Shown here: positions 1 to 5,028 of the stretch, one piece after another
Position numbering within the stretch: the first letter of the stretch is position 1
How the letters are laid out: each line of letters begins with the position of its first letter
From: a virus
Lineage: Duplodnaviria; Heunggongvirae; Uroviricota; Caudoviricetes
DNA length: 5,028 nt
Direction: 5' to 3' (one strand)
Virus record (IMG/VR): IMGVR_UViG_2606217110_000024
Translations under genes and position numbers: made by a program
Notes under the pieces: generated by a model
What the model saw: only the letters and a program-made list of their open reading frames with translations
What the model was told of the DNA's origin: nothing
Database searches by the model: none

Positions 1-227
1 AAGTCGATATACCGGAAACAACGCGCGGCGCTCTTTACTCATTCGTTTACAACGTGGGTGCTGGCAATTTCAGAACATCGACGCTTCTTCGCAAAATAAA
101 CCAGGGCGATATCAAAGGCGCATGTGATCAGTTACGTCGCTGGACATATGCTGGCGGTAAGCAATGGAAAGGTCTCATGACTCGTCGTGAGATTGAGCGT
201 GAAATCTGTTTGTGGGGTCAGCAATGA
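1..227 (+). CDS. R: Endolysin, T4-type lysozyme (phage 21 R / DLP12 RrrD-like), 3' partial; the 5' end lies upstream of the window
   Basis: Frame 3 is open from the window edge to TGA at 225-227 and translates as [74 protein letters not shown], which matches the C-terminus of the lambdoid T4-lysozyme-family endolysin as I recall it. It is not the lambda R transglycosylase. Its stop overlaps the Rz start as ATGA. Confidence 0.85.
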
Positions 228-685
228 ACAGAGTAACCGCGATTATCTCCGCTCTGGTTATCTGCATCATCGTCTGCCTGTCATGGGCTGTTAATCATTA
301 CCGTGATAACGCCATTACCTATAAAGCCCAGCGCGACAAAAATGCCAAAGAACTGAAGCTGGCGAACGCGGCAATTACTGACATGCAGATGCGTCAGCGT
401 GATGTTGCTGCGCTCGATGCAAAATACACGAAGGAGTTAGCTGATGCGAAAGCTGAAAATAATGCTCTGCGTGATGATGTTGCCGCTGGTCGTCGTCGGT
501 TGCACATCAAAGCAGTCTGTCAGTCAGTGCGTGAAGCCACCACCGCCTCCGGCGTGGATAATGCAGCCTCCCCCCGACTGGCAGACACCGCTGAACAGGA
601 TTATTTCACCCTCAGAGAGAGGCTGATCACTATGCAAAAACAACTGGAAGGAACCCAGAAGTATATTAATGAGCAGTGCAGATAG
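224..685 (+). CDS. Rz: Rz i-spanin (inner-membrane spanin subunit), 153 aa
   Basis: ATG at 224 overlaps the endolysin stop (caATGA). The product [41 protein letters not shown]... has an N-terminal transmembrane helix and coiled-coil periplasmic domain and is near-identical to lambda Rz from memory. The track ORF 212..685 starts at an upstream GTG; ATG 224 is the canonical start. Confidence 0.93.
444..626 (+). CDS. Rz1: Rz1 o-spanin (outer-membrane lipoprotein spanin subunit), 60 aa, embedded entirely within Rz in the +1 frame
   Basis: Product [24 protein letters not shown]...[18 protein letters not shown] has a signal peptide with lipobox VVGC and a proline-rich mature region, matching lambda Rz1. 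The embedded-gene architecture is classic. Confidence 0.9.
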
Positions 686-689
686 AGCT

Positions 690-705
690 GCCCATATCGA
701 TGGGC
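690..705. terminator. Putative hairpin between convergent Rz and bor (GCCCAT-atcg-ATGGGC)
   Basis: A 6-bp perfect inverted repeat with a 4-nt loop lies in the 31-bp gap between the Rz stop (685) and the bor stop (717). There is no clear U-tract on either strand, so terminator function is uncertain. Confidence 0.3.
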
Positions 706-716
706 AACTCATGCAA

Positions 717-1010
717 TTATTGTGAGCAATACACACGCGCTTCCAGCGGAGTATAAATGCCTAAAGTAATAAAACCGAGCAATCCATTTACGAATGTTTG
801 CTGGGTTTCTGTTTTAACAACATTTTCTGCGCCGCCACAAATTTTGGCTGCATCAACAGTTTTCTCCTGTCCAATTCCCGAAACGAAGAAGTGATGGGTG
901 ATGGTTTCCTTTGGTGTTACTGCTGTCGGTTTGTTTCCAACAGTAAACGTCTGTTGAGCACATCCTGTAATAAGCATTGCCAGAGCGGCAGAAAACAACA
1001 TTTTTTTCAT
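717..1010 (-). CDS. bor: Bor lipoprotein (serum-resistance / lysogenic-conversion outer-membrane lipoprotein), 97 aa
   Basis: Minus-strand ORF; the track product contains MKKMLFSAALAMLITGCAQQTFTV...YTPLEARVYCSQ. I place the start at the internal ATG (plus 1008-1010) giving 97 aa, with signal peptide and lipobox LITGC and an AGGATAA-like RBS just upstream. The track's longer 113-aa form (717..1058) starts at an upstream ATG that is probably not used. Matches lambda Bor from memory. Confidence 0.92.
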   Translation of the reverse strand: MKKMLFSAALAMLITGCAQQTFTVGNKPTAVTPKETITHHFFVSGIGQEKTVDAAKICGGAENVVKTETQQTFVNGLLGFITLGIYTPLEARVYCSQ

Positions 1011-1023
1011 CTTATTATCCTGC

Positions 1024-1055
1024 ATTGTTAAAAACGGCAGAATCCTATGTGACAA
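1024..1055 (-). promoter_or_regulatory. Putative bor promoter (minus-strand -35 TTGTCA, about 16-17 bp spacer, weak -10 TTTTAA/TTTAAC)
   Basis: AT-rich region immediately upstream of bor on the minus strand. The hexamers are imperfect and the assignment is by inspection only. Confidence 0.25.
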
Positions 1056-1370
1056 CAATTAAACGATAGTTAAATGGATTGATGAAAATTAAAACTATAT
1101 AGGTGGATGCTCAGCCTATTGGAGGAGGGGGGGCACTCAGAATCCTGTGGAATGAAATAAACCGCTCTATCTGTCCATTACCCTTTTAGCTGCGCTGTAT
1201 CGTCGCCGTATTCCCGCATTAACCATGACCGTAGCCCGACGGGGAATTCCTTCTGCGTGAGTGTGCGGGAATAATCAAAAACGATGCACACCGGGTTTTA
1301 CTGTGCTGACAGACGCAGGGTTACCCTCATAGTCGCTTTTCCGGTGCGATGGTGGAAGAAACCGGGATGT

Positions 1371-1565
1371 TCATCCATCATCACTTTGGATTGATGTATA
1401 TGCTCTCTTTTCTGACGTTAGTCTCCGACGGCAGGCTTCAATGACCCAGGCTGAGAAATTCCCAGACCCTTTTTGCTCAAGAGCGATGTTAATTTGTTCA
1501 ATCATTTGGTTAGGAAAGCGGATGTTGCGGGTTGTTGTTCTGCGGGTTCTGTTCTTCGTTGACAT
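1371..1565 (-). CDS. ylcI: YlcI/YnfO-family small protein (DUF3950), 64 aa, predicted ribbon-helix-helix-like DNA-binding fold
   Basis: Product MSTKNRTRRTTTRNIRFPNQMIEQINIALEQKGSGNFSAWVIEACRRRLTSEKRAYTSIQSDDG has a basic N-terminus, then a strand-helix-G-loop-helix pattern typical of RHH proteins. I recall it as the small ORF found next to cos at the right end of lambda and as YlcI in DLP12. Confidence 0.8.
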   Translation of the reverse strand: MSTKNRTRRTTTRNIRFPNQMIEQINIALEQKGSGNFSAWVIEACRRRLTSEKRAYTSIQSDDG

Positions 1566-1764
1566 GAGGTTGCCCCGTATTCAGTGTCGCTGATTTGTAT
1601 TGTCTGAAGTTGTTTTTACGTTAAGTTGATGCAGATCAATTAATACGATACCTGCGTCATAATTGATTATTTGACGTGGTTTGATGGCGTAGATGCACGT
1701 TGTGACATATAGATGATAATTATTATCATTTTGCGGGTCCTTTCCGGCGATCCGACAGGTTACG

Positions 1765-1776
1765 GGGCGGCGACCT
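1765..1776. other. cosN: cosN, the 12-nt cohesive-end sequence GGGCGGCGACCT (terminase nicking site)
   Basis: Exact lambda cohesive-end 12-mer, preceded by ...CCGACAGGTTACG (lambda right-end terminus) and followed by CGCGGGTTTTCGCTATTTATGAAAATTTTCCGG (lambda left-end start). Confidence 0.92.
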
Positions 1777-1953
1777 CGCGGGTTTTCGCTATTTATGAAA
1801 ATTTTCCGGTTTAAGGCGTTTCCGTTCTTCTTCGTCATAACTTAATGTTTTTATTTAAAATACCCTCTGAAAAGAAAGGAAACGACAGGTGCTGAAAGCG
1901 AGCTTTTTGGCCTCTGTCGTTTCCTTTCTCTGTTTTTGTCCGTGGAATGAACA
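1777..1953. other. cosB: cosB terminase (gpNu1) binding region with R3, IHF site I1, R2, R1
   Basis: Three copies of the Nu1-binding core CGTTTCC: R3 at 1817-1823 (+), R2 at 1878-1884 (inverted, GGAAACG), R1 at 1918-1924 (+). An AT-rich stretch at 1836-1862 (cataacttaatgtttttatttaaaatac) sits between R3 and R2 where the IHF site I1 lies in lambda. Nu1 follows immediately. Confidence 0.85.
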
Positions 1954-2473
1954 ATGGAAGTCAACAAAAAGCAGCTGGCTGACATTTTCGGTGCGAGTAT
2001 CCGTACCATTCAGAACTGGCAGGAACAGGGAATGCCCGTTCTGCGAGGCGGTGGCAAGGGTAATGAGGTGCTTTATGACTCTGCCGCCGTCATAAAATGG
2101 TATGCCGAAAGGGATGCTGAAATTGAGAACGAAAAGCTGCGCCGGGAAGTTGAAGAACTGCGGCAGGCCAGCGAGACAGATCTCCAGCCAGGGACTATTG
2201 AGTACGAACGCCATCGACTTACGCGTGCGCAGGCCGACGCACAGGAGCTGAAAAATGCCAGAGACTCCGCTGAAGTGGTGGAAACCGCATTCTGTACTTT
2301 CGTGCTGTCGCGGATCGCAGGTGAAATTGCCAGTATTCTCGACGGGATCCCCCTGTCGGTGCAGCGGCGTTTTCCGGAACTGGAAAACCGACATGTTGAT
2401 TTCCTGAAACGGGATATCATCAAAGCCATGAACAAAGCAGCCGCGCTGGATGAACTGATACCGGGGTTGCTGA

Positions 2474-2499
<26 letters not shown>
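1954..2499 (+). CDS. Nu1: Terminase small subunit gpNu1, 181 aa
   Basis: Product MEVNKKQLADIFGASIRTIQNWQEQGMPVLRGGGKGNEVLYDSAAVIKWYAERD... has the N-terminal winged-HTH cosB-binding domain and is near-identical to lambda Nu1 from memory. Its 3' end overlaps A by 26 nt, as in lambda. Confidence 0.97.

Positions 2500-5028
<2,529 letters not shown>

Follow-up and report, generated by a model that had tools for sequence, protein, structure and literature searches.

A lambda-like late region with a minus-strand bor/iss gene

The window (the whole stretch of DNA that was analysed, 5,028 bp) is the complete contig JNMR01000097.1 of draft assembly GCA_000700445.1, from Escherichia coli 3-267-03_S4_C2. 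It begins within a lysozyme gene that is common to lambdoid prophages and finishes within an insertion sequence (IS) of which some complete E. coli genomes have as many as 13 copies, both ends being repeat-induced assembly breaks. A six-frame list of open reading frames together with profile searches revealed a standard lambda-like late region on the plus strand and two genes on the minus strand (717-1010 and 1371-1565).

On the plus strand, the C-terminal part of endolysin R (1-227, the contig starting inside the gene) is followed by the Rz i-spanin (224-685; PF03245, E 2e-53) with the Rz1 o-spanin embedded in it (444-626; PF06085, E 9e-20). Further downstream lie the 12-nt cohesive end of cosN, GGGCGGCGACCT (1765-1776), a cosB region that is identical to lambda up to nu1, the full-length terminase small subunit gene nu1 (1954-2499; PF07471, E 4e-101) and, from profile searches, the full-length terminase large subunit gene A (2474-4399, 641 aa) and the full-length head-tail joining gene W (4396-4602). 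Portal gene B starts at 4599 and is represented by its first ~53 codons (4599-4756), after which its frame enters the right end of an IS21-family element (4757-5028, minus strand) and reaches a stop at 4817. Within that element, inside which the contig ends, we found the terminal repeat TGTCAACGCCAAGAT and the C-terminus of IstB (4814-5026, minus strand; PF01695, E 1.2e-20). The two minus-strand genes are bor/iss (717-1010, 97 aa; Pfam Lambda_Bor) and a YlcI/YnfO-family DUF3950 gene of 64 aa (1371-1565). A tRNA search of the window found none, and searches against Rfam at E values up to 1 returned only chance miRNA-like matches on the cosB inverted repeat. A paper on the prophage small RNA svsR deals with the cI region and has no bearing on this DNA.

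The bor/iss gene is opposite in strand to R, Rz/Rz1, nu1, A, W and B, and it lies between Rz/Rz1 and cos, convergent with the late genes. The first-pass annotation had drawn attention to this antisense placement, which we confirmed, though the same position and orientation occur in lambda, in phage PhiR68_2, in the prophage of E. coli strain 64 and in DLP12; judging from these relatives, the orientation is the canonical lambda arrangement and no peculiarity of the window. Lambda and DLP12 differ from the window in having ~1 kb more between bor and the DUF3950 gene (ybcV/DUF1398-like and ybcW-like genes), and the lambda endolysin is a transglycosylase whereas the one here is of the RrrD/phage-lysozyme type, differences that are ordinary lambdoid mosaicism. 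DLP12 of E. coli K-12, which carries BorD (VboR), shares the gene order rrrD-rzpD/rzoD-borD-...-ylcI-nohD, but it is degraded, with a terminase large subunit pseudogene and no head genes, whereas nu1, A, W and cos are complete here.

The gene is intact and carries an iss-type allele

The reading frame at 717-1010 runs on the minus strand from ATG to TAA over 97 codons, with neither a frameshift nor a stop, in agreement with the earlier description of the gene as intact. Its product matched PHROG 260, 'Bor-like outer membrane protein', over 1-97 of 97 (E 4e-59) and the Pfam family Lambda_Bor (PF06291) over the whole model (1-75 of 75), scoring 106.7 bits where the cut-off is 25 (E 6.4e-31). This full-length profile match above a curated threshold places the protein in the Bor/Iss family and bears out the initial identification of a bor-family lysogenic-conversion gene. 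The precursor has a signal peptide, MKKMLFSAALAMLITG, ahead of CAQQ, with the lipobox ITGC, Cys17 and Ala at +2, from which the rule for outer-membrane sorting (lipobox, invariant Cys and no Asp at +2), applied by eye, predicts an outer-membrane lipoprotein. Cys17 and the two cysteines of the mature part, Cys58 and Cys95, are invariant in the Bor/Iss alignment.

Three starts are available to this frame, and the 97-aa start (ATG at 1010) was favoured over the 102-aa (ATG at 1025) and 113-aa (TTG at 1058) starts because of the placement of a Shine-Dalgarno AGGA (1018-1021, minus strand, read from the sequence) 7 nt before the ATG at 1010. Some annotations use the 102-aa start for bor/iss.

Comparison with annotated relatives revealed that E. 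coli strain 64 carries a gene, annotated 'iss', matching this one at all 294 of 294 nt, and that the protein is identical (97/97) to the chromosomal WP_000738423.1, 'increased serum survival lipoprotein Iss', which occurs in identical form on at least 1,000 contigs. The protein matches plasmid Iss at 96/97 residues and lambda Bor at 89/97, the differences from lambda Bor being concentrated in the signal peptide and in the mature protein's first third. The name bor that had been given to the gene thus stands for the family and gives way for the exact allele, which on its nucleotide identity is of the iss type and not lambda bor; for annotation, the worth of the comparison lies in this choice of allele name.

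The one residue that separates the protein from Iss of the ColV/IncF virulence plasmids is L83 (here) versus F83 (plasmid), and the ~75 nt upstream of plasmid iss, which hold the ribosome-binding site, the -10 element and a box-like repeat, are near-identical to those of the window, with 2 substitutions. The plasmid gene differs in its setting, being plasmid-borne where the gene here sits in a prophage late region. Lambda Bor, by comparison, shares family, length, lipobox, the position between Rz and cos, orientation and an almost identical 3' hairpin, and it differs in protein sequence, as above, and in the upstream box described below. A sequence search of the PDB for Bor returned no relative with a solved structure, and an AlphaFold2 model built on a shallow alignment had a mean pLDDT of 49.8 and was unusable.

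Moron features and a candidate promoter

We evaluated the features by which a moron is recognized. The G+C content of bor is 41.8% and that of its upstream DNA 38.9%, as compared with 50-54% in the flanking genes, so that bor is ~10 points lower. In the 31-nt gap between the convergent stop codons of Rz and bor lies an 11-bp GC-rich hairpin (685-710) that differs by one base from lambda and folds with z-scores of -3.75 on the minus strand and -2.71 on the plus strand; it is likely the 3' end, or terminator, of the bor transcript. A second, small hairpin with a T-run (644-658) is terminator-like on the bor strand and lies inside Rz. Opposite orientation, lower G+C and a 3' hairpin are thus present, while a promoter was recognized by homology only, the generic scan being negative. 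With its own ribosome-binding site and an upstream control region added to these features, bor/iss would be a classical moron.

The first-pass annotation had credited the gene with its own putative promoter, a claim that fares differently by method. A generic sigma-70 and terminator scan of 600-2000 gave no minus-strand promoter upstream of bor, whereas homology to the upstream regions of lambda bor and DLP12 borD points to a candidate. Its putative -10 element is TAGGAT (1042-1047, minus strand), which reads TACGAT in lambda and DLP12, and the block CACATA(G/C)GATTCTGC is conserved across the lambda, DLP12, plasmid iss and Escherichia albertii alleles. Twelve nt upstream of the -10 lies a PhoP-box-like direct repeat, CATTTA-ACTAT-CGTTTA (1060-1076, minus strand), that agrees at 9/12 positions with the pattern of PhoP-activated promoters, (T/G)GTTTA-N5-(T/G)GTTTA placed ~12 nt upstream of the -10. 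Taken together, the elements at 1042-1076 are a candidate bor/iss promoter, inferred from homology.

The two upstream types are parallel in layout. Lambda bor and DLP12 borD, whose upstream regions are identical to each other, carry a perfect box, TGTTTA-GGGTT-TGTTTA, then 12 nt, then TACGAT, so that the promoter of DLP12 borD belongs with that of lambda and not with the iss type. In the window, in plasmid iss and in the E. albertii alleles, the order at the corresponding place is CATTTA-ACTAT-(C/T)GTTTA, 12 nt and TAGGAT. Between the lambda/DLP12 and iss types the half-sites, the -10 and a subsequent TCTGC are conserved, and the 5-nt spacer has diverged. PhoP-box matches with up to 3 mismatches numbered 16 in the window against 9.8 +/- 3.1 expected, which is chance level, and because the 9/12 box is by itself no better than chance, we put forward PhoP control of the iss-type allele here only as a hypothesis. 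The borD gene (vboR) belongs, as is documented, to the E. coli PhoP regulon (PMC5740661; PMC2789325), and it is for borD of K-12 alone that transcription dependent on PhoP and Mg2+ has been shown. Lambda bor is transcribed in lysogens (PMC1151598).

Two further observations were made upstream of bor homologues. The plus strand has a run of 7 G at 1126-1132, ~115 nt upstream of where bor starts; in prophage loci that are identical elsewhere, this run counts anywhere from 5 to 10 bases, a variation that could reflect slippage or sequencing error. The bor homologues of Salmonella enterica subsp. diarizonae and arizonae, at 66-69% identity, have ~60-110 nt upstream the sequence AATGATAAAAATTATCATTT followed by TTGTATATAAT, a Fur-box-like palindrome and an extended -10, hinting that in these subspecies bor may be under iron regulation instead of a PhoP box.

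A proposed route from transcription to serum survival

A proposed route from gene to phenotype runs as follows. In the lysogen, transcription of bor/iss would begin ~35 nt upstream of the ATG, from a promoter made up of the -10 TAGGAT and, further upstream, a direct repeat with its homologue in the PhoP-activated lambda bor/DLP12 borD promoter. The precursor would then be exported, lipidated on Cys17 and, given Ala at +2, sorted to the outer membrane; lipidation at the Cys and outer-membrane sorting follow established knowledge of lipoprotein biogenesis. At the outer membrane, members of the Bor/Iss family may modestly raise serum survival.

It is on this last step that the evidence divides. 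A serum-resistance effect has been reported for lambda bor, as cited in PMC1151598. In avian pathogenic E. coli (APEC) O78, by contrast, neither chromosomal iss nor bor could stand in for plasmid iss in serum survival: even over-expressed, they did not restore survival to a plasmid-iss mutant (PMC4313913). The serum phenotype of the iss-type chromosomal allele in the window is, on present evidence, uncertain. The gene might accordingly be intact and expressed and yet be no meaningful serum-resistance determinant, its real role being some other envelope function within the PhoP/Mg2+ regulon. Besides the APEC result, this alternative draws on the induction of borD together with the PhoP regulon by osmotic upshift and on a borD deletion for which no phenotype was found (PMC5740661; PMC2789325), but it has to reckon with a protein here that is one residue off plasmid Iss. 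We regard a non-serum role as a tentative alternative, plausible although on balance not the one we favour.

A conserved non-coding element upstream of bor/iss

A non-coding element of ~85-100 nt (~1195-1290) accompanies bor/iss in lambda, in DLP12, in ColV-type plasmids and in the prophage here, while the DNA surrounding it differs. It contains a 9-bp inverted repeat, ATTCCCGCA/TGCGGGAAT, in which lambda shows one compensatory swap of C:G to G:C, and on the plus strand it folds better than shuffled sequences (z -3.17). The element had no match in Rfam, and a test for RNA covariation gave a term of about 0, with just 2 compensatory pairs among 9 variants. It might act as a structured RNA within the late transcript, or else as a site of recombination or regulation. 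A 37-aa reading frame overlapping it (1178-1291), which is a gene call in the assembly, was rejected, having no family match and losing its frame in lambda through a 1-nt indel. On a broader interpretation, the bor/iss moron would be more than a bare gene, with a functional cis element upstream and a regulation of the iss type that has diverged by way of the degenerate PhoP box; we consider this unlikely as it stands.

A probable single recent insertion in the portal gene

The match of gene B to phage portal genes ends at 4756/4757, exactly where the IS end TGTCAACGCC... begins, and the gene is cut after ~53 of its 533 codons. The claim that the portal gene is destroyed was thereby upheld, and its cause is the IS21-family element. 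This element is 99-100% identical in DNA to annotated IS21-like elements; it has the gene for the IstB helper ATPase beside a terminal inverted repeat starting TGT, which places it in the IS21 family, and its terminal repeat is the same as the end of the copy in E. coli E24377A. Several of the closest IS copies come from strains that we take to be enterotoxigenic E. coli, which their records do not state. As regards packaging, the lambda-type cos module falls short of a functional one only at the portal: cosN/cosB, nu1, A and W are intact and portal B is truncated.

The rest of the window is close to that of phages and prophages elsewhere. Over positions 1-4757, identity is 99.4% to Escherichia phage PhiR68_2, deposited as a complete phage genome whose host is named, and 99.6% to prophages of many E. 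coli strains. Counted base by base, there are 30 differences from PhiR68_2 and 20 from an E. coli prophage, all of them substitutions except for one length change in the intergenic G-run, and the genes contain no indel or stop. Rz, Rz1, the DUF3950 gene, cosN/cosB, nu1, A and W are all full length, and at least 80% of the window is present in ~36% of complete E. coli genomes (1,973). The junction, by contrast, appears to be private to this strain: its 72-aa chimeric portal::IS product is represented by 1 member on 1 contig among ~15 billion proteins, the junction was in no complete E. coli genome among the matches listed, and an exact search in one genome per species did not find it.

Because positions 1-4757 are near-identical to phages and prophages and the junction product is unique, the simplest reading of the portal disruption would be one recent, strain-specific IS21-family insertion and not decay. 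What had looked like a defective packaging module would then be a single recent hit at the end of a draft contig. We hold it highly probable that the window carries an iss-type bor at the canonical site of a lambda-like prophage, that one IS has struck B, and that the prophage is newly disabled at most; this judgement covers the 5,028-bp contig, and further defects are possible in the part of the prophage that lies beyond the IS and off the contig.

The first-pass annotation had gone further and proposed that a host-beneficial moron is being kept in a decaying prophage, that is, that selection holds bor intact for the benefit it brings the host through serum resistance. An interrupted portal gene is what such decay might look like, DLP12 offers a precedent in borD lying intact beside the terminase remnants nohD/aaaD, and bor/iss is very widespread, copies at 90% identity or more being present in 3,499 of 5,426 complete E. 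coli genomes (64%; 4,150 chromosomal and 665 plasmid places). Only B has been hit, however: the other genes and cos are as intact as bor, leaving no contrast between bor and its neighbours, divergence from isolated phages and prophages is 0.4-0.6% with no coding indels, and the IS junction is unique to the strain. Because every neighbour of bor is equally intact, the window offers no evidence for preferential retention of bor. An intact bor is expected in any recently disabled, or even functional, prophage, and an intact moron beside a single broken gene is no sign that selection has retained it. We thus did not retain the proposal and judge decay with selective retention quite improbable.

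Another alternative, which we consider very improbable, is that the strain's prophage is actually intact and that the junction arose as an artefact of assembly or is confined to a subpopulation. The contig is indeed a short one from a draft short-read assembly with both ends in repeated DNA, but it reaches 271 bp into the IS, and it leaves the portal gene precisely at the terminal repeat TGTCA..., which is also the IS end at the genuine insertion of E24377A. A true insertion would look just like this.

In E24377A itself (locus 8003-10143), a near-identical IS21-like element with an ISEc62-type annotation interrupts a portal gene and is accompanied by a 5-bp AACTC duplication. We rejected this as the same event, as it concerns a different prophage and a different site.

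Prevalence and annotation of bor/iss

The bor/iss finding is real, ordinary and already known. Among the accessory genes that prophages bring to E. coli, the gene is one of the most widespread, and knowledge of its position, orientation and presumed role goes back to the 1990s. A moron kept in a degraded prophage is likewise a textbook concept, as in the case of DLP12 borD. Our listing of Bor homologues consisted mostly of near-identical sequences and of error-laden copies on contigs of ~3.5 kb. Assemblies under the names Kitasatospora, Cohnella, Flavobacterium, Pedobacter, plants and others also contain lambda-type bor (92% identical to the query), in most cases on ~3.5-kb contigs, and these copies are likeliest to be contamination with lambda control DNA rather than genuine genes.
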